Positions 51 to 40,509 of a stretch of DNA of 43,440 nucleotides are shown one piece after another. The notes beneath the pieces were generated by a model. That model saw nothing but the letters and a program-made list of their open reading frames with translations. It was not told where the DNA came from and searched no databases. This stretch comes from Escherichia coli (lineage in GTDB: Bacteria; Pseudomonadota; Gammaproteobacteria; Enterobacterales; Enterobacteriaceae). Positions within the stretch are counted from its first letter, which is position 1. Each line of letters starts with the position of its first letter. Both the position numbers and the translations under genes were made by a program. Where the stretch lies: assembly GCF_003334255.1 (NCBI RefSeq), contig NZ_QOWU01000048.1. One strand, written 5' to 3'.

Positions 51-1361
51 CTAAATCAGTAAGTTGGCAGCATCACCTCCCTGTTTAAAATCATAATTTG
101 GTTGTTCTGTTCTTGAGTTATTAAGTAGAGTTCTTATCAGTGTTTGCCAAGCATGATTGATAAATTTATTTTCTGATTCTTTAAAATATCGTCTGATTAA
201 AGCACATAAATCTTCGACACTTTTCTGACGAGCGCTAGCTGCCCAACGGCCCCCTTCGGTTTGCACCATTGAACGTTGTACACTGTCTCCTAACTGAGCG
301 ATAAATTTCTGTTCATCGTCAAGTTGCATGTTTTCATTTATGATTAATTCATACAAAGCAAGAAAAACAGCTTGATAGTAACGAGGACATTCTTGAGATG
401 AAGATGCATTGCCCAGAATGTGTGATCTAAAGTTCAAATTATTTGCATCAAATAATTTTTGAATCATCTCATAAACGAAGAGGTAATTATTGACAATTTT
501 ATCTGCACCATTTGTCTGAATGTAATTCTCTAATTGAGTTCGTGTATGGATTGCATGACTCGTCGAACCTTCACCGTAAAATGTATCGAGCGATGTTGAT
601 CCTGATGTTGGCTTATCATCTAAAAATATATAGCCCAAGATATTTGCAACTAACTCTTCATCGTCAGAGTCTCTAATGCTAGGCCTACTAATGATATGAT
701 TTCTAATATAGAAATGATTGTCTATATTTATTCCATAATCGAGTCCATCATTGCAAATTGATATGTTATGTATTTTATTCAGTCCCATTATATCGCTATG
801 TGTAGTATCTCCTCTTATAATTGTCGATATTTTCCTTACTAACTCTGAAAAATTACTAACGCACCCCGCACTTCGTAGTTCTTGTTTTGATAAAATTTTA
901 CCATTGGAATTTATGCGTCGAAACACTTCGTCAATGTGGTCCTCTGTTGAAGAGTATTCAGATATAGCAAATCTATAGCGAGCAATTAATGTAGAACTTT
1001 CGCGGGATAGCACTGGCTCTTTTTGTTGAAGTTTACCACTGTCTTTTAGTTGTTTTGTTAATGCAATGGCATCTAAATTAAAGTATTTACCATTTAATGA
1101 AAATCGCTGCTCAATAAAACTCATTAAAGCTTCTAGTCTTTGCATTCCATCAAGGATTTCTCTTTTGTTGTCAATGGAAACAAACAATAGCAAAGGGATA
1201 GGGTATTGCTGAGTCATTGATGAAATCAGTGCTGTTTTCTCTTCGAGGGACCATACTAATTTTCTTTGGTATCTTCGATTTATAATTAATTTATCATCCA
1301 GATACCACTCGTATAATTCTTCTGCTGTCTTGGAGTCAATATCTAAGTTTTCATTAGCCAT
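51..1361 (-). CDS. DUF262 (ParB/Srx-like NTPase fold, GmrSD N-terminal-type) domain protein, 436 aa
   Basis: N-terminal 'RRYQRKLVW' and 'DGMQRLEAL' match the DUF262 signature (DGQQR-type motif). ATG start at 1361. Sits in an AT-rich block (1-1645) that contrasts with the GC-rich pem/rep backbone. No recognisable C-terminal HNH/DUF1524 motif seen. Confidence 0.6.
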   Translation of the reverse strand: MANENLDIDSKTAEELYEWYLDDKLIINRRYQRKLVWSLEEKTALISSMTQQYPIPLLLFVSIDNKREILDGMQRLEALMSFIEQRFSLNGKYFNLDAIALTKQLKDSGKLQQKEPVLSRESSTLIARYRFAISEYSSTEDHIDEVFRRINSNGKILSKQELRSAGCVSNFSELVRKISTIIRGDTTHSDIMGLNKIHNISICNDGLDYGINIDNHFYIRNHIISRPSIRDSDDEELVANILGYIFLDDKPTSGSTSLDTFYGEGSTSHAIHTRTQLENYIQTNGADKIVNNYLFVYEMIQKLFDANNLNFRSHILGNASSSQECPRYYQAVFLALYELIINENMQLDDEQKFIAQLGDSVQRSMVQTEGGRWAASARQKSVEDLCALIRRYFKESENKFINHAWQTLIRTLLNNSRTEQPNYDFKQGGDAANLLI

Positions 1362-1645: not shown

Positions 1646-1978
1646 TCAAGTCAGAATAGTGGACAGGCGGCCAAGAACTTCGTTCATGATAGTCTCCGGA
1701 ACCCGTTCGAGTCGTTTTCCGCCCCGTGCTTTCATATCAATTGTCCGGGGTTGATCGCAACGTACAACACCTGTGGTACGTATGCCAACACCATCCAACG
1801 ACACCGCAAAGCCGGCAGTGCGGGCAAAATTGCCTCCGCTGGTTACGGGCACAACAACAGGCAGGCGGGTCACGCGATTAAAGGCCGCCGGTGTGACAAT
1901 CAGCACCGGCCGCGTTCCCTGCTGCTCATGACCTGCGGTAGGATCAAGCGAGACAAGCCAGATTTCCCCTCTTTCCAT
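1646..1978 (-). CDS. pemK: PemK/Kid toxin (endoribonuclease), 110 aa
   Basis: Translation from the internal ATG (MERGEIWLVSLDPTAGHEQQGTRPVLIVTPAAFN...) is essentially identical to R100/R1 PemK/Kid as I remember it. The ORF-track start at 2110 is a TTG over-extension. Confidence 0.9.
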   Translation of the reverse strand: MERGEIWLVSLDPTAGHEQQGTRPVLIVTPAAFNRVTRLPVVVPVTSGGNFARTAGFAVSLDGVGIRTTGVVRCDQPRTIDMKARGGKRLERVPETIMNEVLGRLSTILT

Positions 1979-1979
1979 G

Positions 1980-2237
1980 TCAGATTTCCTCCTGACCAGT
2001 CGCCGGTGCATCCAGCCATTCTCGTTCTTCAGCTGATATTTCAGCATTCGGATCACACTGTGCCAGTAGCTCAGCCAGTGAATATTGCGGGCGTCTGTAC
2101 GGCTCAACAATCAGCCGGCCATTATCAATGACCATGCCAACTTCATTATCTGTGCCCAGAGACAGCGCATTCAGCAGTGCCGGTGGGACGGTCAGCATAA
2201 CTGAGCCGCCAACCCTCTTCAGTCGGGTGGTATGCAT
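1980..2237 (-). CDS. pemI: PemI/Kis antitoxin, 85 aa
   Basis: MHTTRLKRVGGSVMLTVPPALLNAL... matches PemI/Kis. Lies immediately upstream of pemK with the typical 1-2 nt stop/start junction. Confidence 0.9.
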   Translation of the reverse strand: MHTTRLKRVGGSVMLTVPPALLNALSLGTDNEVGMVIDNGRLIVEPYRRPQYSLAELLAQCDPNAEISAEEREWLDAPATGQEEI

Positions 2238-2329
2238 TCTTCACCTCCATAAAAGTTATATTTAAATATAACATCCACTAAAAAAACACACCAGGCTTTA
2301 ACGCACAATGTTTAATAAAAATATAACTT

Positions 2330-2983
2330 TCAACCAAACAGTAAACCCAGCGTGGTTGCTTCCATATGCAGCAATACCGGCAGCAGCAGGCCACCACTTC
2401 TGATCCTGGCCACTGATGTAATCAACCCCACCAGGAACAGTTCTGCCAGTGTCAGCAGGTTCTGATACTGGCTGTGCGCGGCGACGAACAACAACGACGT
2501 TATCAGCGCCCCCAGCCACATCGTCCAGCAGTACCGTGAACGGAAGACGTTCAGCATAATCCCCCGGAACAGCGTTTCCTCATTCAACGGGGCAAGGATA
2601 AAGATGGTCAGCAACGTCAGGATCACGTCAGGTATGGACTTATCGGCAAAAAGTTTCGTCATAAATGGCTCAGCAGGCAGAGCCAGCGCCTTACCGAGCA
2701 GAAATACACCGACATACACCACGGCCATCGCACCGACCAGCCACGGTACGCCAACGTTGCGCAGCTGACCAACGACCGGTAGCGGAGCTATCCAACGGCG
2801 GTATACCAGGAAAACACACAGCAGGTACATCAGAACAGTACCATGACTGAAGAACAAATAGTTTTTTCCTGATCCATAAAGCAGAACGGCCTGCTCCATG
2901 ACAAATCTGGCTCCCCAACTAATGCCCCATGCAGCCAGCATAACCAGCATAAACTGCAGATATTGATTACGTGTTTGAATCAT
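2330..2983 (-). CDS. CPBP-family intramembrane metalloprotease (CAAX protease/Abi-like), 217 aa
   Basis: Multi-pass hydrophobic protein with the CPBP motifs 'EETLFRG' (EExxxR) and 'FVAAHS' (FxxxH). ATG at 2983. Confidence 0.65.
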   Translation of the reverse strand: MIQTRNQYLQFMLVMLAAWGISWGARFVMEQAVLLYGSGKNYLFFSHGTVLMYLLCVFLVYRRWIAPLPVVGQLRNVGVPWLVGAMAVVYVGVFLLGKALALPAEPFMTKLFADKSIPDVILTLLTIFILAPLNEETLFRGIMLNVFRSRYCWTMWLGALITSLLFVAAHSQYQNLLTLAELFLVGLITSVARIRSGGLLLPVLLHMEATTLGLLFG

Positions 2984-3599
2984 TGCATCGCCTGTAAATT
3001 TTTAACTTGTCCTATTTTTGTCATTACCACGTATATACACATGTATAACAATTCAGATATCGTTACCAGGATATGCCGCATCAGCGGCATGGAAGGCGGC
3101 ACTCTGTTGTTTCATATGATACAGGAGTAAAACCGCCGAAGCCCGGCGTAAGCCGGTACTGATTGATAGATTTCACCTTACCCATCCCCAGCCCTGCCAG
3201 ACCATACCCGCTTTCAGCCATGAGAGAGCTTCTGTGCGCGGTCGGAGTGGTCCCGACGAGGGTTTACCCGAAGTCGGGGCGTATCTCCGCGTTAGCGGGC
3301 CGTGAGGGCCGCTTACGAGCGTGTACTGAGAACTTCCAGCGAGAAGACTGACAGCGATGAAGATGTAGTTACAACATTCATAATTAAAAGCGACTCTGTT
3401 CCGGCCCTTTGGGCCGGGGCGGGGCCGCTTTTCAGTTATGAGGGAGGGGCTTTGTGGTTTCGGTTCTGCGCTGGACCGGGGTTTTTCTGGAGGTTGTTTT
3501 TGTGTGTTGTAACTAAAGTGGCTCCGGTCGGGGCCCGCCGCTTGCGGTGGGAGGTGCATATCTGTCTGTCCACAGGACAGGCAGTGAATAGGTTTTCTT

Positions 3600-3920
3600 T
3601 TTAAATGAATGTAATTAAGTAGTTTAAAGGAGATATAAACAGGTGTTTAAAAGATACATTGCACCCTGTAAGACTGGCGGCTGGCGCTTTATGACATGAA
3701 CGGTTGTAACCTTATGGGGAAGTCCCTTGCAGTTAAATGTGGATAAGCAAAATTCCCCGTCGCTGAGGCGTATTTTGTATTAAAAACAGGGGGAATCGGA
3801 TGCTCCAGAAGGTGGATGATGAGATTGTTTTTTGCATGCGACGCTGTTTTTTTGTGCACCGGCGGGCTTCAGGCGTGCGGATGCCTCCGGCGCAGGCCGG
3901 ATTATTCTGAGGAGATCACT
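3600..3920. other. RepFIIA vegetative origin region (oriR) downstream of repA1
   Basis: AT-rich block directly 3' of repA1 containing a DnaA box (TGTGGATAA, complement of TTATCCACA) at about 3749-3757. Position matches the known IncFII replicon layout. Confidence 0.5.
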
Positions 3921-3921
3921 T

Positions 3922-4779
3922 TCAGGGAGAAGCTGTGGCCAGCCGGCTGTAATTGCGGTTACGTGACAGAATCATGCGCTCCTTCACACGACGCTCCACT
4001 TCGCGTTTTACCGCCTCACCATTAGCAGTGAAGCGTCCTTCCGAGATTTCACGCGTCAGCTGCCGTTTCACCAGGGTGACGATATCCTGACGTTCTCTGT
4101 TCGCATCACGACGCGCACGGGCACGTTTTATTCCACGGGACTTAAGCTCTGTCTGGTAACTGCGGAAACGCTCACGCACAAAACGCCAGGCTTTCGCTAT
4201 CAGCTCATCCATACCCAGGGTATCCAGCCCCTGCTTTTTGCGCTGTTTGTTTTCCCATTCAACACGACTGCGGCGCGCAGCTGCCACTGCATCCTCAGAC
4301 ACATCAAGGGCAGCAAACAGAGCCAGTGTGAACGTGATGTCGGTCGGAATGTAGCACCCGATAAGCGGGTCATATTCCGTCTGGTAGGTAATCAGTCCCA
4401 GCTCTGACAGGAACGTCAGGGCCCGGGTGGCACGGGTGATGGAGAGTTTTCCTGCACCGGACTCTGTCGCCAGTCCGCACTCAATGGCCAGTGTGGTGAT
4501 GGAACACTGGACGCGGTTGGCCAGCGGGTCATAGTGGAAACACAGCCCCTGCAGCAGCGCATCAATAGCCCGTCGACGCAGCACCGGTGGCATGCGCCGA
4601 CGCAGACCACGGGAACGGGCATGCGCCACATGAATGGCGAAATCAAAACGGGAGGTGAAGCCCACCGCCTTTTCCATCAGTTTTTCGCAGAACTTCAGCG
4701 TTCCGGCACCTTCACGGGGAGTGAACACCGGATTCGGGTTCTTTACCTGGCGGTAATACGTTTGGTGAAGATCAGTCAC
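3922..4779 (-). CDS. repA1: RepA1 replication initiator (IncFII/RepFIIA), 285 aa, GTG start
   Basis: Protein (V/M)[36 protein letters not shown]... matches R100/R1 RepA1 over its full length. GTG start at 4779..4777 is preceded by AGGA and overlapped by the tap stop codon. ORF-track start at 4791 is an over-extension. Confidence 0.9.
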
Positions 4780-4846
4780 ACCATCCTGCACTTACAATGC
4801 GCAGAAGGAGCGAGCACAGAAAGAAGTCTTGAACTTTTCCGGGCAT
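4772..4846 (-). CDS. tap: tap (repA6) leader peptide, 24 aa, translationally coupled to repA1
   Basis: Minus-strand translation from the ATG at 4846: [24 protein letters not shown], which matches the R1/R100 Tap peptide as I recall it. Its TGA lies just 3' of the repA1 GTG. Confidence 0.75.
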
Positions 4847-4869
4847 ATAACTATACTCCCCGCATAGCT

Positions 4870-4956
4870 GAATTGTTGGCTATACGGTTTAAGTGGGCCC
4901 CGGTAATCTTTTCGTACTCGCCAAAGTTGAAGAAGATTATCGGGGTTTTTGCTTTT
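4870..4956 (+). ncRNA. copA: CopA antisense RNA (copy-number control), approximate bounds
   Basis: Lies on the strand opposite the repA leader, between copB and tap. Imperfect long hairpin (CCCCGGTAATCTT...AAGATTATCGGGG) followed by TTTTTGCTTTT at about 4898-4956, as expected for the CopA terminator stem-loop. 5' end not determined. Confidence 0.5.
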
Positions 4957-5070
4957 CTGGCTCCTGTAAATCCACATCAGAACCAGTTCCTTGCCACCTT
5001 ACGGCGTGGCCAGCCACAAAATTCCTTAAACGATCAGTAATCTAGCATGCTACGCCACAAAGTAAAGTCT

Positions 5071-5331
5071 TTACTTTAGTATATCCAGTCTCTGCAGTTC
5101 ATCTTTGATGATTTTCTCAACGAACTGAGCCTGTGTTATCCCCTCTCTCTCGCAGTACTCAACCATGAGATCTTTCAGAGGATTTTTGACAAAAACTTTT
5201 ATCTCTTTGTGTGTAAGACGTTTTCTTGCAACAGCGGCCATTTGTTTCTCAGAGTCAGTCATAGGCTTACCTCTGCGCACAAACCGCTTTTGACTCAATG
5301 AGGAAGTCACTGCATTTTCTGTCTGCGACAT
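5071..5331 (-). CDS. repA2: RepA2/CopB transcriptional repressor of repA, 86 aa
   Basis: [39 protein letters not shown]... matches CopB. ATG at 5331 with a GAGGAGG RBS upstream. Confidence 0.9.
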
Positions 5332-5494
5332 CTCGCCTCCTCAATACTCAAACAGGGATCGTTTCGCAGAGGATACTACAGTTTTTTGAAATCAGCGACT
5401 TGAGAATTGTGACGAAGATCTGTGTTGGCGCACAAATCAACGGGGATTACTGTCGTTTAATGTGATTTAAACTGTGAAATAGTATGGTTTTCAG

Positions 5495-5577
5495 TTATGG
5501 AAACGCCGGGAGCGGGGAAAACTTGCTTTTTCCCGTTTCCGGGGTTGGACAACTGAGCAACGCGAAGGCGTCAGCTA
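5495..5577. repeat. Copy 1 of an ~80 bp hairpin-containing repeat (second copy at about 17475-17552)
   Basis: Shared blocks 'GGAAACGCCGGG' and 'CCGGGGTTGGACAAC.GAGCAA.GCGA.GGCGTCAG' flank a copy-specific hairpin. Lies between the DUF2726-like gene and repA2. Confidence 0.5.
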
Positions 5578-6161
5578 CGATGTTCCGGGGACTGCTGATC
5601 AGCCCCTGTTGTATTCAGCCATTCTCCGGTCATCTGCAGCAGTTTTCTGGCATCGTGGCTTCTGAGCAACGGAATACCAGCCTGCCTCAGAACCTCTTCC
5701 AGAAAAATATCCCGGCGTCTGCGTTCCGGTCGTAAATGTCTGGCATCATCCAGCTCTACTGCTGCAACAATACTGAACGAAAGCCGCTCAACGATAACCA
5801 CATCAACATGCCACTGAGACACCATCCTGAATAACTGCCACCACTGGCGTGATCGTGGCCGGATATTCCCGTTCAGCTGGACGATATCCGCGACCCGTAC
5901 CTGCGGACACAGATACCACCGCTTCATATCCACAATTCTGAACAGTCCTTTCATAAAACTGACTTCCCTTTCTGTCAGCAGCGTCTTCTGACGTTGCCAG
6001 TATTCACCGCCGGACAGTATTCGCTCTGCATCACCGGTCCGTATACCTGCCGCATGCAACTGCATCAGCAAAGGAGAATGCTGATTTACACTTCTGAGGA
6101 TAATCCGGATAAGTAACGCTGCAATAATCAGAACAATGAGAATAAAAATAATCAGCTTCAT
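5571..6161 (-). CDS. N-terminally membrane-anchored protein, probably DUF2726-type, 196 aa
   Basis: Hydrophobic N-terminus (MKLIIFILIVLIIAALLIRIIL) followed by a soluble domain. Occupies the position and has the size of the conserved IncF backbone gene next to the hha-like gene. Domain assignment is from memory, not motif-proven. Confidence 0.5.
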   Translation of the reverse strand: MKLIIFILIVLIIAALLIRIILRSVNQHSPLLMQLHAAGIRTGDAERILSGGEYWQRQKTLLTEREVSFMKGLFRIVDMKRWYLCPQVRVADIVQLNGNIRPRSRQWWQLFRMVSQWHVDVVIVERLSFSIVAAVELDDARHLRPERRRRDIFLEEVLRQAGIPLLRSHDARKLLQMTGEWLNTTGADQQSPEHRS

Positions 6162-7015: not shown

Positions 7016-7472
7016 TATAAAATCACGACTTAATACGGAAAAAACTCTGTGCTACTCAGAACTGTCCGGTCATACTTCCCGACCGGATATTAAAAAAAGC
7101 AAATCTCATGCATTATTCAGCCTTCTGAATCCCTGGAGTAATGAAGGCTGCTTTTTCGTTACACCCTTCCCCGGCAGCGCCGGTGGCAGTGTTCAGCCCT
7201 TTTTCGGGCAAACTGCTGCCAGTCTGTCCGGGGAGCAGACTGCGCAGCCCGTAGCCATGCCTCAGCGGCTCCCGGCCAGTCCCCCCTGACTTCCAGCCGG
7301 ACAGCCCGGCGTCCGACCTGCCGGTAGCGCCATACCCCGGAGTTTTGCGAATCACGCCCTGTTCCGTTCATTTTCCTTCCCCCTTTAATCCAGGCCGGTG
7401 AATGTGTTATAAATTTTTATAACCTTCTTCTGCCGGGTATGGAAGAAGGTTTCAGAGAAGCCTTATTTTTCC

Positions 7473-9847: not shown

Positions 9848-12800
9848 TCAGTCTCCGCCCAGGGTTTTCTCTTTCTGCAGGTCACGAACCATATCCCGCT
9901 CCATCTGCTGCAGACGCTCCTGCAGCAGATTTTCCCGGGCAACCTCCCGGACCGCTTCCCGCTCCCGTTGTGATTCACGCAGCACACTCTCCGGCAGTGC
10001 GGTTTCCCGTTCAGATATGGCAGACCGGTCACGCTCCTGTCCGGCAATATCCCTGACAGCCAGCTCTGTTTTGCCGTCCGGCAGGTCAGGTTTGTTCTCT
10101 GCCATTTTCCTGACAATTTCATCTGCGCGGCGTTCCGTTTCACGGCGGATGGCCTCTTCAGCCTGCCGCTGTGCCAGTACCTCTGCCGTGACCGGTTCGC
10201 CATTTCCGGCACCCGGCTGGACGCTGTTGTCCGGGATATCCCCCCACACGCGGCCACCGGTGATGGCACCGGGATTCCACGGGCGACCTTCACCGGCGAT
10301 TCTTACCACCACACCACTGTCAGGATTATCACGGGCAATCCGGACGCCATCCTGCATATTATCAGCCAGCAGGCTCTCTCCGTTACGGCTGCCCTGCAGG
10401 GCCACGAACTGCGCATCCCCGCTGCCTTTCACCCGTCCTTCACCACTGAATCCCCGCAGCCCGTTTCCGTCATCCGTGGTCAGTGGGTTCAGCCAGATAC
10501 CAGCTGACTTGCCGTTACGGTCAAACGCCGGCAGTGCCACATGCGGCTGCGGATATTTACGTCCCGGTGCAATAAACCGTGCAGGGCTGTCTCCCCCGGC
10601 CAGCCCTGCCTGACGGAGAACGGCACGGCCTGCCGCCACGTCCCGCAGTTCCCGTGCCGTACTGAACAGCCGCTGCGCATTCATGACCTCCCGGTCCGGT
10701 TTCGGCTCCAGCACATCGTGGGCAGTTCCTTTCTGTACGGCATTGTTAATGGCATCCGTCCAGCCCTGACGGTTATCGGTGTACACCTGCACATGCTGCT
10801 TCATACGCGACAGGGCCACGTAGGCTGACTCAAAGCCGGCCATCAGTTTCCGGTTACCTTCCGTGCCTTCAAGCGCGATGGCAAAGGTTTCACTCGCCCC
10901 CTGCGCACCGTGGGCGGTGATGGCATAAGCCAGGTCAATATGTTGCTCTGCCCGCTCCTGGCCGGGGCGAATCACCCGGGTCTGCTGTCCGTCTGACAGC
11001 GTGACACTGTCACCGGAAACCGCTGTCACCGTCCAGACGCTGTTGGCCACATAACCGCGCTCCCGGTCACTCTTCGTGAAGCGCATCCGGTCGCCGGTCC
11101 CCACCCGGATTTTGTCCGGGGTGTACAGTGTGACACCTTCAGCCACCGCCTCCCGGGGCGAAATCAGCCGCGTGTTACCTTCCGCATCCTCCAGGGTTAT
11201 CAGCCCGTCATCCTTGCTGATACCGGCAATCCGGTGATACACACTATCCACCAGGGCAAGGGCATCCGGGTTATTCTCCCAGGTGGAGAGACGACGCAGC
11301 TCCCCGTCACGTATATTCGCTGTGTTCAGGACAGGCACCATGACCTGCTCTTTCCCCAGCTCACCGGCCTTTTCCCGTGCATCATGAATCATGCTGTTCA
11401 GTACGCGCCGGTCCTCATTCAGGTGCGTGACAATCAGCGTCTGCTCCCGTGCTTCCGGTGTCCTGCCGGTATAGTCGCGGACAATGGCTTCATACAGTGT
11501 CATGGGGACATCCGGAAAAGTCTCACCTTTCAGCATCGCCTTCTGCTGCGCTTCTGCCAGTTTCGCTTCCTGGCTGTGACTGAACTCCGTCACGGAGTGC
11601 TCCGGTGCCCATGCGCCCTCCTGACGGGGAACCTGAGACGGTTTCACACTCTCAAGCCCGGACAGTGCCCTTTCCACATCCCGGTTAATCAGGCTGTATA
11701 CCGCCTCCCGCAGTTCCGGCGTCTGACGCACAATCTCCTTCATGATGACCACATCGGCAGCACTGCGCGTCTGCTGGAGACGGAAAGGCTGACCGGGCGC
11801 GATGGCCTGCAGCTGGTCCGTGTCACCACTGGCCACGGCACGACCGCCACCGGCCGCAATCAGGGCGTATGCCCGTGCCATGTCGGTATTGCCCACCATT
11901 GAGCTCTCATCGAGCAGGAACAGCGTGTTGCTGAAATCCGGCGTTTCTCCGCTGCGCTGCTGCAGCTGCGTGTCATGCAGAAAGGACGCCAGCGTCTGTG
12001 CATCCACGCCGGCGCTGCGCATCTCACCGACCGCACGGTGCGTGGGCCCCAGCCCCACAACTCGGGGACGCTCACTCGCCGGCAGCATGTTCACGGCTGA
12101 CATCACCGCCCGGAACTGTGTGGTCTTACCCACCCCGGCATACCCCTGCACCACCGTGAAACGGTCGGACGTTTCCAGTATCATGCGGGTGGCGGCACGC
12201 TGTCCTGATGTCAGTTTCTCCATGAGTTCGCCAGGTACTCTCTCCATCAGCGGCGTGACCGCCTCCTTACCTTCGAGAATATGGCGAAGAATACTTTTTT
12301 CTGCCTCATACGACGCACGGGAAACCAGCAGGCCTGTGCCATAGCCTTTTGCCACATCCACATACAGTAAGTCACCGCGTTTTATCTGCGCATTGATTTC
12401 CCCTCCCAGTTCAGTAAAACCGGTTCCTTCTGCAGCAAACGACTTCGCCTCTGTCAGCAGGTCCACCATGCTGAAGGCCAGGTTTTTACTTTCCAGCACA
12501 GGAAGGGCCAGATGAATGGCCTGCTGTGCCGGCGTGTGCAGCCCGGTTTTCTGCAGACTGATAGCGGTTTCCAGCGATGTCTCACCGGCCCGCGCCTTTA
12601 TCTGCTCAGAAACCACCGTAAAGGAGGGATGGCGGGCAAGTTTTTCCGCAGTACGGGTTTCATCCAGTGAGGAATACAGCCGGACATCACGACCGCTGCG
12701 GGCCAGACCGTTCAGGGTGGCGTTGTCCATTGCCATCTGTGTGACGGAGGCAAACACCGTCGCACTGTCACTGACGGAATGCCCGGGCGTTTCCACCCAG

Positions 12801-18841: not shown

Positions 18842-21663
18842 AATGGCCCCTTCAATCGTTCTTTCTTATCATCCACCATCTGTTTTAACGCATCTTCAGA
18901 CGGTGTTGGCATTAATTTCTGTCGTTTATTTTCTTCATTATATCTGTTGTTTTGTTGAATTTCTTCCTGTTTGTGATTATTTTTTAACTCTGAATATTGT
19001 CTGTCTACAATATTTTCTTCGCCATGAATACTATTCTGAGTATCTCCGATATTCCCTTTATATTCTGTGACCATATTATCAACCTGATGTTTTACATCAT
19101 TACGGATATTACTGTCCTGCGTTCTTTGATCAATAATGGCCTGATGCCCCTGATGGTCAGCAATAATATCCTGGCTGCCACCACCCGAAGGTACGCTCTC
19201 CATTCCTTTACCAATATCCCCACGGGATTCACGCCAGGCATTATCAACACCAGGCTGCACCTGTTCCTGAACAAAAGACCATGCCATCGCCCGACGGCGT
19301 TCTGCAATCTCCGGTGAACTGGTGTTTGTCAGAATAGCTTCGGCATCCTGCGGTGCGTGTTTCATCACATACTGTGCAAACTGTTGCGACAAATCTTCGC
19401 TCATCTGCCCACTCATGCTTTCAGTACGGGATGCCATTTCAGCATATTCATGGCTGCGGGTCATATTCGTCGTGTACTGGTCGTAACTCTGTTTCGCTGA
19501 GTTCAGGGCTGCAGACAACTGGTCCACGCGGGAATCGGCATTATTGTCAGTATGGCTGCCGGATTCACTGACTTTGCGACTGGTAAAGTAATCGCTGGCC
19601 TCTTTAAAGTCCTTACTGGCTTTAGCATCGATATCATGGCGAGCATCATGGGTAGCCCTGCTGCCACTACTTGCTGAATGTGAGTCATCATCCGTTGCAT
19701 CCAGGCTCCCCTTAAATCCACCTCTGATGCCTACCCCACCACCAACACCAAGAATTTTAGGTTTAACCCCCCATTCAGCATGAGCATCAGCATACATTCC
19801 ACCAGATAGCCTGGTACTTGTTGATGCCAGTTCCTGAGTCGCCTGCTCATTACTGATATTATGCGCCTTCGCATAGCTTTCCACTGCACTGCGCATACGG
19901 CTGGCCATCATGGAGTCCTGAGCACTCATCGTGCTGTCAGCACCACCGGTGACAGAATCACTGCTCCCCCGGTTAGAACCAAACTGACTGAGCGTGTTCC
20001 AGGCACTGGCAATACTGCTGCTGAACCCATGCAGGGCACTTTCTGCTCTGTTCGATGCTTCCCGGGCCATTTCCTGTTGTGCCGCCGCAATCTGACGCGT
20101 TGCATTGATACCGACCGGTAAACGGGACATCGCCCCGCTCGCATCCATCACCATATTACCGTCACGGGTCTGTGTGGCGGTTGCGCCACTGCCGGTCTGG
20201 TACATCATCTGACCAAACGACGTGGTGCTGTTGGTGCTCCAGCTGAAGCCGTTAACGTTCTCCGTCTGCATGTTGCCGTAGGAGTAATTACCGTCAACCA
20301 CACTGCCTGCTGCACTGGCGGTCGGGCTGATAGCAGAGGAAGCGAAATGGCTGTACACACTGGAAAATCCTGCCCCGAGCCCCCTGACCATCATCCAGGA
20401 TAATGGCGGGATCATCATGGAAAGATACCCGGCAGTGGAAGCCAGATCGGAGTATTTCAGCTGTATCTGTGAAATTTCCGAGAGCACCACCGGTGCACCA
20501 TTCTGCTTTGCATAAAATGTCATGGCGCTGTTCAGAATGGCGTACAACATTGGCCATGACTGCAACCACATCAGGGCAAACACATAGCCTTTCAGGACGG
20601 ACAGCGTCAGTTTGTTGAAGACAGCCGCCAGTACCAGGAGCGGGAAAATACCGATGGCGATCCCCGTCAGGATGGTCTGCGTCATGGGCAGTGTCCGCAT
20701 CGCCACATGACCGATGGAGACATGTGCCAGACGTTGCTTCTCCATCGATGATGTGGTGGCCAGATTCACCAGGCTGGCCGAATCACCATTACGTGCGGCA
20801 TAACTGGTGATCCCCTCCTTCAGCGCATTGATGGTGACATTCTGGCGGATGATCTGGCTGGCTGATTTACTTGAGCCATAGAAGTAACTGTAACTGTCGC
20901 CAATCAGCGTACTGAACAACAGGTTCGGATCAGGGCGTCCACCAAATAGCTGCTGGGCATAATAATGCCATGTTTTTCCGCCACTCTGTGTGTCCAGATT
21001 CAGCTTGTCTTTCAGCGAAACCGACGCGTCCTTACAGGTCACGAAATTATTATTGCTGTCATAAACGCCCCGCAGCGGACTGGGGCGGGAAAAAATCAGC
21101 GTGTAAGGATCAGCGGAGGCCATCAGTTCCTCCAGCGTGTATTTGTGGTTCAGGTAAATATCCCCCATCACGCAGTTCTGCACATAATCCTGGAAAAGAT
21201 TGGCGATTTCCGGATTACGGGACAAAAAGTCGGTGCTTTTTGATACCAGTTCTGCGCCAAACAGCATCCCCGTTTTGCTGTAGGTGACACTGTCCGGTTG
21301 CGTGAAGATCATCTCGTAACTGGCCACCATTGCATGCCCGATACGGGTCGTCAGTGAAAGTGGCATCGCCAGTCCGACCGGCACATTATCCACCCGGTGA
21401 ACTTTGACCAGGTCACTGTTATCAATAATCTGCACCGATGTGCGGACATTAACCAGCAGGCTGATAAGCACAAACACGGCCACCCAGCCCAGCAAATCCA
21501 TCACGTTGTGCCGCTGTACCCACATTACGGCCACCGCGAGAACAGACAATGTGAGCGCAATTTTTTCAATGGAATCCCACGTCCGGGTCCCCATAAAAGC
21601 GGCAATGGCATTCAGGTTATTCCGCAACCACTCACCACCGGCAATCACATAAACTTCATTCAC
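18838..21663 (-). CDS. traG: TraG mating-pair stabilisation/pilus assembly/entry exclusion protein, 941 aa
   Basis: Size, N-terminal polytopic region and large periplasmic C-terminal domain match F TraG (938 aa). Syntenic with traH and traS. Confidence 0.9.
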   Translation of the reverse strand: MNEVYVIAGGEWLRNNLNAIAAFMGTRTWDSIEKIALTLSVLAVAVMWVQRHNVMDLLGWVAVFVLISLLVNVRTSVQIIDNSDLVKVHRVDNVPVGLAMPLSLTTRIGHAMVASYEMIFTQPDSVTYSKTGMLFGAELVSKSTDFLSRNPEIANLFQDYVQNCVMGDIYLNHKYTLEELMASADPYTLIFSRPSPLRGVYDSNNNFVTCKDASVSLKDKLNLDTQSGGKTWHYYAQQLFGGRPDPNLLFSTLIGDSYSYFYGSSKSASQIIRQNVTINALKEGITSYAARNGDSASLVNLATTSSMEKQRLAHVSIGHVAMRTLPMTQTILTGIAIGIFPLLVLAAVFNKLTLSVLKGYVFALMWLQSWPMLYAILNSAMTFYAKQNGAPVVLSEISQIQLKYSDLASTAGYLSMMIPPLSWMMVRGLGAGFSSVYSHFASSAISPTASAAGSVVDGNYSYGNMQTENVNGFSWSTNSTTSFGQMMYQTGSGATATQTRDGNMVMDASGAMSRLPVGINATRQIAAAQQEMAREASNRAESALHGFSSSIASAWNTLSQFGSNRGSSDSVTGGADSTMSAQDSMMASRMRSAVESYAKAHNISNEQATQELASTSTRLSGGMYADAHAEWGVKPKILGVGGGVGIRGGFKGSLDATDDDSHSASSGSRATHDARHDIDAKASKDFKEASDYFTSRKVSESGSHTDNNADSRVDQLSAALNSAKQSYDQYTTNMTRSHEYAEMASRTESMSGQMSEDLSQQFAQYVMKHAPQDAEAILTNTSSPEIAERRRAMAWSFVQEQVQPGVDNAWRESRGDIGKGMESVPSGGGSQDIIADHQGHQAIIDQRTQDSNIRNDVKHQVDNMVTEYKGNIGDTQNSIHGEENIVDRQYSELKNNHKQEEIQQNNRYNEENKRQKLMPTPSEDALKQMVDDKKERLKGPL

Positions 21664-39632: not shown

Positions 39633-40319
39633 TTACTTAACGCTATAAAATTCACGAATTATATTTAATAGCGAATCTATTTCCCCTTTATAGATACATG
39701 ACACTCTGAATAAATCAAAGTGTTCAAAAAATTCTTTTATTTTCCGTTTAACTGGTTTAATTCGATCCTCAGATGCTCTGTCTGTAATACCCAATTCTCT
39801 GGCAATTGTTGCATGACCAACACCCAGCATATAAAAAGAGAAAACAAGCAATGTCCCGGGGGAAAGATCATTCCATATCGTTAATTTGTCAGAAGTATTT
39901 GTATTACTTCCACTCTGATTTAACGCAAAAAATGGATAATCAGGAAACGGATTAATTTGCCATAAAACAACAGATTCGTCATTATAAAAAGAAACATTCT
40001 CCATCCTTATCTGATAGATTTCGCCATGAAAATTAAAACGACGACAAAATGCAGAGCCATGTCCAAGAGCCTGGCATTCCAGTTCAAGTGATGAAAGAAA
40101 AATTTCAACCTGCAGACGTATATAACTCTCTCCGGATAAGGGTTTATCTTCTCTGGAAAAGAGTTCAATAAAAGCCCCATTGGCATAAAGGATTTTCCGG
40201 TTTTTGTTACGGACACAAACCGGAACGGGAGAATTTCTGTAGATATTCTGAACGTTAAGGATGTATTTATTTACAGATTGACTGTTAAGTGGCCTTTCTC
40301 TACGATCCAGCGCACACAT
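39633..40319 (-). CDS. traJ: TraJ transcriptional activator of the tra operon, about 228 aa
   Basis: Start trimmed to the ATG at 40319 ([14 protein letters not shown]...), which has a GGAGG RBS at 5-nt spacing. C-terminal helix-turn-helix-like segment '[20 protein letters not shown]'. ORF-track start at 40379 runs into the finP/leader region. Confidence 0.8.
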
Positions 40320-40395
40320 AGGAACCTCCGTTAAGGATTCTATGGACAGTCGATGCAGGGAGGTCTGAACTCCCTGCATCGGCGATTTTCAGTTT
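40320..40395 (+). ncRNA. finP: FinP antisense RNA (approximate), complementary to the traJ leader
   Basis: Plus-strand perfect hairpin CGATGCAGGGAG-gtctgaa-CTCCCTGCATCG at about 40350-40381, followed by GCGATTTTC. Overlies the traJ RBS region on the opposite strand. Ends not mapped. Confidence 0.45.
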
Positions 40396-40509
40396 CAATT
40401 TTTAACGTGGCATTAACCACGTAATTAATATACTAATTATCTGACGTATTGTCATCTTTTTGAATCATAAAAATTCTTATATTTGAACCAACTCAAACTT
40501 CATTTTCAT

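Follow-up and report, generated by a model that had tools for sequence, protein, structure and literature searches.

The block at positions 3000-3600 of the window, by which we mean the whole 43,440-nucleotide stretch of Escherichia coli DNA analysed here, very probably serves an R100/R1-type IncFII replicon as a cis-acting region for priming and terminating replication. The observations made in this analysis that bear on this assignment are the homology of the block, the presence and orientation of two Ter cores, a non-coding mode of evolution, and a conserved structure specific to the plus strand. The first-pass annotation, in which the block was described as a GC-rich non-coding sequence that might correspond to the repA4 region of IncFII replicons or to a small RNA, was half right, and the biology of the block is already known.

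The window begins within an IS1 end, after which the R100 arrangement follows on the minus strand. The genes and replication elements around the block, with the genes taken from the window gene list, are as follows.

51-1361, minus strand: DUF262 gene
1646-2237, minus strand: pemK/pemI
2330-2983, minus strand: CPBP-family gene (tir in R100), with its start codon at 2983
3000-3072, unstranded: lineage-specific spacer 5' of the CPBP/tir start codon, with conservation of 0.38-0.60, common to R100-type relatives only
3073-3600, unstranded: conserved cis-acting module 3' of oriR (the historical 'repA4 region'), from the alignment of 14 replicons
3590-3750, minus strand: oriR (context), with a DnaA box and an A+T stretch; its extent is also given as about 3563-3750
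3590-3660: A+T stretch (77%), part of oriR
3738-3746, minus strand: DnaA box TTATCCACA, within oriR
3922-4791, minus strand: repA1
4864-4954: CopA antisense RNA (106 bits, Rfam)
5071-5331, minus strand: copB

The gap between the CPBP gene and repA1 is unannotated, and the block fills most of this gap, directly downstream of the oriR of a CopA/RepA1-type replicon. Its placement by the first-pass annotation between oriR and the CPBP gene was thus borne out by the DnaA box on one side and the CPBP start codon on the other. The gene order is identical in R100 (NC_002134), where repA1 is followed by a gap, CPBP, pemI, pemK, DUF262 and IS1, and the whole repA1-to-CPBP interval of R100 is 96-98% identical to that of the window (BLAST, 95.9% over 938 nt; MAFFT, mean column identity of 97%). 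By this alignment 3' of oriR, and with the same flanking genes, the block is the stretch historically called the 'repA4 region', here within an R100-like IncFII replicon, as had been suspected. Compared with the repA4 region of R100/NR1 and R1, nothing substantive differs in the window. The span of a 128-aa open reading frame (see below) carries 11 substitutions between R100 and the window, two of which fall at non-core positions of the upstream Ter core (GTGTG vs GAGTG).

At least 5000 plasmid records match the 601-nt block with 90-100% identity, and within E. coli it was found in 6614 matching records from 4190 of 5426 complete genomes, with identity down to about 73%. For comparative analysis the segment downstream of repA was aligned for 14 replicons, ranging from about 66 to 100% identity to the window. 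Conservation per 20 nt across the module 3073-3600 is 0.63-0.97. The homology between replicons runs from oriR to about 3073 and ends there, and past this position the cargo differs by replicon (pemIK, yacAB, relBE-type toxin-antitoxin pairs, DUF6685 and IS elements). The spacer 3000-3072 is therefore outside the conserved element, and is presumably the promoter or leader of tir.

With respect to composition, the first-pass description of the block as rich in GC, GGCC and GGGG stood in part. The sequence is locally GC-rich (GC of 0.535-0.58 for 3100-3600 vs 0.40-0.46 in the flanks), and on the plus strand both GGGG (six copies vs a tile mean of 1.2, a level reached by five of 429 tiles) and GGGGC (five vs a tile mean of 0.3) are enriched. 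CCCC occurs once on the plus strand vs a tile mean of 2.9, indicating that G-runs are enriched on the plus strand only. The part that did not stand concerns the block as a whole, for which the GC content (52.7% over the full 601 nt vs 50.5% for the window) shows the enrichment to be local and modest, and GGCC, of which the enrichment is mild (six vs 2.7; 39 of 429 tiles). The plus strand is G+T-rich, with a GC skew of +0.25 to +0.29.

The window was searched for the Ter core consensus GNRNGTTGTAAYKA, i.e. G6-N-R-N-G-T-T-G-T-A-A-Y-K-A19. Only two exact matches were found in 43 kb, both within the block and in inverted orientation, while 0.05 were expected and none of 100 shuffles contained two or more.

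3502-3515 (23-mer 3497-3519), plus strand: upstream Ter core GTGTGTTGTAACTA, an exact consensus match, corresponding to terRL of R1
3366-3379 (23-mer 3362-3384), minus strand: downstream Ter core GAATGTTGTAACTA, an exact consensus match, corresponding to terRR of R1

These two inverted cores, the most diagnostic features of the block, had been passed over in the first-pass annotation. None of the 14 replicons has lost the downstream core, not even those at about 66-72% identity, while its flanks are variable. One of the conservation peaks of the module falls on this area (3370-3389), where the 13 relatives show an identity to the window of 0.92-0.97. The upstream core is kept in nine of the 14.

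The polarity of the two sites was derived from the E. coli chromosome. In MG1655 tus is on the plus strand, and so is the TerB core. Since TerB arrests the clockwise fork, along whose path the coordinates increase, a fork must be blocked when it meets the core strand at its 5' (G6) end, which is thus the non-permissive face. Read in this way, the non-permissive end of the upstream Ter faces lower coordinates and should block forks heading back to oriR and repA1, while that of the downstream Ter faces oriR and should arrest the fork after one circuit of the plasmid, just before the leading-strand start. Binding and function of Tus at both plasmid cores are predicted from the consensus, the conservation and the R1 literature. 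In R1, two ter sites are located between oriR and the leading-strand start, terRL acting against the counter-clockwise fork and terRR against the clockwise one once a round is complete (PMC10331603); both Tus binding and polar fork arrest in R1 are credited to Krabbe 1997 in the accounts of PMC7174701 and PMC10331603. As judged by sequence, the order and polarity of the Ter cores in the window reproduce this published terRL/terRR scheme. A single decisive arrest site has been stressed in the literature (PMC7174701), and the conservation in 14 vs nine of the 14 replicons fits terRR as the probable indispensable site. The plasmid pEC958, which is 99.3% identical to the window in this block, is not stably maintained when a transposon is inserted in repA4, and the ter sites are stated to be within the region (PMC4398462). 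The label 'poorly characterised' given to the repA4 region thus proved to be an overstatement, as two ter sites and the leading-strand start have been placed here together with their functions (PMC10331603; PMC7174701; PMC4398462).

The plasmid pair shares with the chromosomal Tus-Ter trap (TerA-J) the same 14-nt core consensus, including G6 and GTTGTAAC, and in both, the non-permissive faces of two sites point inward, so that forks enter the interval and cannot leave. It differs in geometry and use: the plasmid sites lie 123 bp apart beside a unidirectional origin, whereas those of the chromosome are opposite its origin, and unlike in the chromosomal trap, one plasmid site would set the direction and the other end the round. 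The plasmid carries no tus and would use the Tus of the host. The terminus of R6K (terR1/terR2), likened here by description only, is likewise a plasmid-borne inverted pair of Tus-binding sites (PMC10331603), but is located away from the origin and arrests forks from origins firing in either direction.

Two open reading frames overlap the block, and as described in the first-pass annotation, they overlap each other.

3173-3559, minus strand: 128-aa ORF, named 'replication-associated protein RepA4' in some RefSeq records
3302-3604, plus strand: 100-aa ORF with a GTG start

The RefSeq/PGAP name (WP_012311408.1) is attached to exactly this 128-aa ORF on the minus strand, and RepA4 is listed among the Rep proteins in older plasmid papers (PMC2762410). 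If the ORF were a real RepA4 gene with a role in replication or stability, the conservation of the block would reflect coding constraint, in agreement with the intact, ATG-initiated frame in the window, in R100 and in L004 (one identical plasmid) and with the scoring of 'repA4' as required by TraDIS (PMC4398462). In the remaining 11 of the 14 replicons, which are all the relatives outside the R100 lineage and span 66-93% identity, the frame is broken by indels of non-3n length and by three to 11 in-frame stops, and the ATG is absent in four; the broken frames include those of relatives at 91-93% identity, in which the DNA is still conserved. The homologues are marked as frameshifted pseudogenes by RefSeq, and in pEntH10407 the RepA4 ORF is split into two truncated pieces (PMC2762410). 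The 11 substitutions between the window and R100, a small sample, are spread over the codon positions as 4/3/4, and seven are non-synonymous. Neither NCBIfam (E<=1; 128-aa, 100-aa and 62-aa ORFs) nor Pfam (E<=10) gave a match. The conservation peaks fall on the Ter core and on hairpins rather than on features of the reading frame, and cis-acting sites explain the TraDIS result equally well. Taken together, a protein-coding repA4 is hardly credible, and from these comparisons the 128-aa ORF is judged not to be a real gene. The GTG start of the 100-aa ORF is missing even in R100, and in all 11 relatives outside the R100 lineage the first in-frame stop comes after 22-31 codons; by the same comparisons it is a chance ORF. 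Since the frames are broken in relatives and codon-position bias was not detected, substitution of the coding type is not found and the earlier description as non-coding stands: the block evolves as non-coding DNA.

The conserved elements other than the Ter cores are predicted hairpins and terminator-like sequences, located as follows.

3073-3090, unstranded: last conserved hairpin, ATGCCGC-ATCA-GCGGCAT, at the downstream edge of the shared module
3134-3148, minus strand (repA1 direction): hairpin CGCCGGGCTTCGGCG followed by GTTTTAC, terminator-like
3234-3326, plus strand: ultra-conserved structured block with a closing stem 3234-3243/3317-3326
3244-3288 (inner 3250-3280) and 3291-3316, plus strand: stem-loops inside 3234-3326
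3377-3442, plus strand: long hairpin of 29 pairs, directly beside the downstream Ter on its non-permissive side (from folds and covariation)
3476-3490, plus strand: weak terminator-like site, from a simple scan
3534-3551, plus strand: small hairpin CCCGCCGC-TTG-CGGTGGG beside oriR, from the alignment

The several small hairpins noticed in the first pass are beyond chance. The single-strand DNA fold of the plus strand at 3225-3440 reaches -49 kcal/mol (z = -4.9; none of 200 shuffles as good) vs -38.8 kcal/mol (z = -3.3) for the minus strand, and the pairs are kept with covariation in the 14 replicons. The fold stability of the block is unexceptional within the window, where other 541-nt tiles reach -123 vs -106 kcal/mol for the block, and therefore the argument rests on conservation, covariation and strand asymmetry, and not on energy alone. 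In the consensus structure of 62 pairs, 99.0% of 799 cells are standard pairs on the plus strand vs only 84% when the same pairs are read on the minus strand, and the G·T cells number 119 on the plus strand and none on the minus strand, a bias that could partly come from the G+T-rich composition of the plus strand. The covariation score exceeded those of all 500 shuffles and of all slid registers.

The five pairs that change on both sides are all located in the 3377-3442 hairpin, one of them being CG in six and GC in five of 13 distinct sequences; here 99.5% of cells are paired on the plus strand vs 78.2% on the minus strand, with 79 vs 0 G·T cells. The 3234-3326 block consists of 33 pairs (98.6% paired on the plus strand vs 89.2% on the minus strand; 40 vs 0 G·T cells) and is nearly invariant, so that covariation is uninformative there; the second conservation peak, at 3230-3330, reaches 0.92-0.97 identity to the window in 13 relatives vs 0.75-0.84 for oriR. 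The 3534-3551 hairpin contains a G·T pair on the plus strand only, and one of its C-G pairs is replaced by T-A in L006. The segment 3130-3149 is conserved at 0.93. In the 3073-3090 hairpin the stems are constant and the loop is variable among relatives, and divergence starts immediately past the hairpin. No paralogue of the conserved block or of the long hairpin, such as a leading-region ssi, was found elsewhere in the window or in R100.

A leading strand moving away from oriR is copied from the plus strand, which is also the strand displaced by DnaB as it moves 5'-to-3' along the minus strand. A single-strand priming signal predicts such selection for hairpins confined to the plus strand, and we infer that the 3377-3442 hairpin forms as single-stranded DNA in the displaced template of the leading strand.

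The same structures might instead be formed in RNA, either as a transcript antisense to 'repA4' that ends at 3377-3442 or as a bidirectional terminator shielding oriR. Confinement of the structure and of G·U-type pairs to the plus strand would agree with this reading, and the 3377-3442 hairpin, which is GC-rich, covarying and flanked by an A-tract (AAAA) and a T-tract (TTTT), looks like a bidirectional terminator too. However, its T-tract is paired with its A-tract within the stem, and the terminator scan did not pick the hairpin up. This simple scan gave three sites in the region vs 1.2 expected, among them 3476-3490 (plus) and 3134-3148 (minus), both weak. No sigma-70-like promoter was detected on either strand of 2900-3950. 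Rfam gave nothing inside the block at E<=1 (2300-5600) or at the gathering threshold (whole window), although CopA, FinP, the traJ leader and three pHK01-derived antisense RNAs were found easily elsewhere in the window; a snoRNA match at the block edge (2968-3035; E=0.53, 20.6 bits vs a gathering score of 70) is due to chance. Moreover, at initiation it is the plus strand that should exist as single-stranded DNA, and this accounts for the same asymmetry with no transcript involved. An RNA or terminator function for these structures is thus improbable, and the small RNA considered in the first-pass annotation finds no support in these searches.

We return to the displaced strand as a priming template. 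Among ten CTG trinucleotides on the plus strand within 3060-3560, only one is kept in all 14 replicons, the others being kept in four to 12.

3194-3196, plus strand: invariant 5'-CTG-3' (the start trinucleotide of primase), candidate leading-strand start, 14 of 14 replicons

This CTG lies downstream of both Ter sites, and about 370 bp separate it from the AT-rich end of oriR. As was reportedly found by Masai and Arai in 1989 and by Bernander and co-workers (Bernander et al.) in 1992, primase on its own primes the R1 leading strand at a 'G site', which is said to lie roughly 380-400 bp downstream of oriR. In R1 the leading-strand start has been placed beyond both ter sites (PMC10331603). From its position and invariance, the CTG at 3194-3196 appears to be the best candidate for the leading-strand start, and 3234-3326 is a candidate recognition structure of a primase priming signal (G site) or of a primosome assembly site. 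The assignment of the priming site is weak, and both the exact priming nucleotide and the hairpins that may serve primase or PriA are inferred. Another trinucleotide, the CTG at 3326-3328, which lies in a TACTG like that of phage G4 and has a G4-like layout, was rejected as the primase start because it is kept in only seven of the 14 replicons.

The complementary-strand origin of phage G4 likewise has GC-rich stem-loops on the template strand with 5'-CTG-3' nearby, and stable stem-loops on the template strand, as demanded by the G4-type class, are present in the window; TACTG at 3323-3328 is common to both. The layout differs, the stem-loops of G4 being 5' of the CTG on the template, whereas the ultra-conserved block of the window is 3' of the invariant CTG. 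Comparison of the G4 origin (F-G intergenic region) with the block gave a Smith-Waterman score of 21 vs a shuffle mean of 21.6, and a BLAST search of 50,697 phage records gave chance matches only, none better than E=3. By these comparisons, membership of the block in the G4-type class is not established. The G sites of plasmids and phages are reported not to resemble each other, so that the missing similarity to G4 does not exclude function.

Instead of, or besides, a primase-only G site, the hairpins could be PriA-dependent (phiX174-type) primosome assembly sites that reload DnaB past the Ter sites. Conserved strand-specific hairpins on the displaced strand are compatible with such sites, primosome assembly sites flanking the G site of R1 were reportedly described by Masai and Arai in 1989, and the proposal could help explain how replication starts beyond a Tus-occupied terRR. 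Such sites have no usable consensus, and replication of R1 in vitro is reported to depend on primase and not on the PriA primosome. We regard PriA-dependent assembly as a possible but rather unlikely alternative. As a further reading, the hairpin array (3234-3326, 3377-3442 and 3534-3551) would be an undescribed element, either a structured plus-strand RNA ending at 3377-3442 or a single-strand DNA device, adjoining terRR on its non-permissive side, by which the helicase or replisome could at initiation get past the Tus-occupied terminator or be reloaded beyond it; this we consider very improbable.

Based on the preferred assignment as a terminus and priming region, and with the roles of terRL and terRR and of the start site beyond them carried over from the R1 literature, the following order of events may be proposed. 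RepA would open oriR (about 3563-3750), and helicase would unwind toward lower coordinates, displacing the plus strand, which would fold into the conserved hairpins. Leading-strand priming would take place a few hundred bp downstream, with the CTG at 3194-3196 as the candidate start and 3234-3326 as the putative recognition element. Tus at the upstream Ter (3502-3515, terRL) would block a backward fork to oriR and repA1, leading to unidirectional replication, and the single productive fork would circle the plasmid, cross oriR again, and be halted by Tus at 3366-3379 (terRR), shortly before the point at which it would displace the 5' end of the new leading strand. Arrest at terRR would thereby prevent rolling-circle over-replication and formation of multimers; without arrest, the fork is known to enter already replicated DNA, giving rise to branched molecules, rolling circles and multimers (PMC7174701; PMC6315707). 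The open reading frames would be accidental in this scheme.

The blocking face of terRR is also met by the helicase leaving oriR at initiation, for which this scheme offers no explanation. The covarying hairpin 3377-3442 abuts exactly this face.

The block is real and functional but ordinary, and has already been described; its importance is mainly in annotation hygiene, and no new concept for plasmid replication biology arises from it. The protein name 'RepA4' is unsupported by the comparative data, and yet the region is left blank or carries this name in thousands of clinically important IncF resistance plasmids, with terRL, terRR and the strand-specific hairpins unannotated in public records. 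Insertions in the region make the plasmid unstable (PMC4398462), and plasmid-curing tools could therefore plausibly be aimed at the invariant terRR core and at the 3234-3326 block, both of which are also good markers of IncFII-type replicons.

Outside the non-coding repA4 region downstream of oriR, the window has Rfam matches at the gathering threshold, among them:

7079-7262, + strand, AS-pc02 (229 bits)
12193-12269, + strand, AS-traI
20859-20944, + strand, AS-traG
40313-40422, FinP and the traJ 5' UTR

Based on these matches, the window spans the replicon and then the F-type transfer region, up to traJ. The opposite end opens with IS1 terminal sequence (1-77; reverse complement GGTGATGCTGCCAACTTACTGATTTAGTG...), into which runs an open reading frame for a 436-aa DUF262 protein (51-1361, - strand). 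Since the stop codon of this reading frame (51-53) lies inside the IS1 sequence, the gene is probably truncated, with a C-terminus that comes from IS1. A DUF262 protein of 646 aa is found at a similar position in one related plasmid. The DUF262/IS1 segment is AT-rich, with a GC content of only 30-36%.

Across loci L006-L017 of related replicons, a hairpin at 3073-3090 forms a sharp edge to the replicon module that they share with the window. The cargo beyond approximately 3073 varies by replicon, including CPBP plus pemIK, yacAB, RelE/Phd and RelE/ParE pairs, DUF6685 plus ProQ/FinO, and IS elements. This junction looks like a recurrent point of cargo exchange, mostly of toxin-antitoxin modules.

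Within the module, the reading frame at 3173-3559 (- strand) is annotated by RefSeq/PGAP as "replication-associated protein RepA4" (WP_012311408.1). The frame is shifted or stop-ridden in 11 of the 14 related replicons (the window and 13 relatives), and the broken copies were entered by RefSeq/PGAP as pseudogenes. The product name is probably an annotation error inherited from older records, given to DNA that acts in cis. The ultra-conserved structured block (3234-3326, + strand) was examined in the most divergent relative, L007 (1494-1717; alignment A2). The 3291-3316 stem-loop there carries a 7-nt insertion, an AGGGCCG-type duplication (A2 columns 80-86), in its loop, and the 3250-3280 stem has several unpaired cells; the block therefore tolerates loop changes and little else.

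The blocking face of terRR, the downstream Ter, meets the fork after a full circle and also the helicase departing oriR at initiation, and the long covarying hairpin on the + strand directly abuts this face (Ter and hairpin together, window 3366-3442). Beside terRL, the upstream Ter, a 32-nt protospacer (3519-3550) starts 4 nt past the Ter core and is directly preceded by AAG (3516-3518, + strand), the canonical type I-E PAM. The identical spacer is carried in a chromosomal type I-E CRISPR array adjoining cas1e/cas2e in E. coli 18KM2445 (L005, 1503-1534), the only one of 5426 complete genomes in which it was found. Ter sites are reportedly hotspots of spacer acquisition (Levy et al. 2015).

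As to the conservation of the two Ter sites, terRL (site at window 3497-3519) is missing in five of the 14 replicons (L008, L009, L012, L013, and L016), its position being occupied by sequences such as TTTTTGCTGTGGTTTCAGAA, and terRR is retained in all five. Some IncFII-type lineages therefore seem able to do without terRL as an enforcer of unidirectionality.
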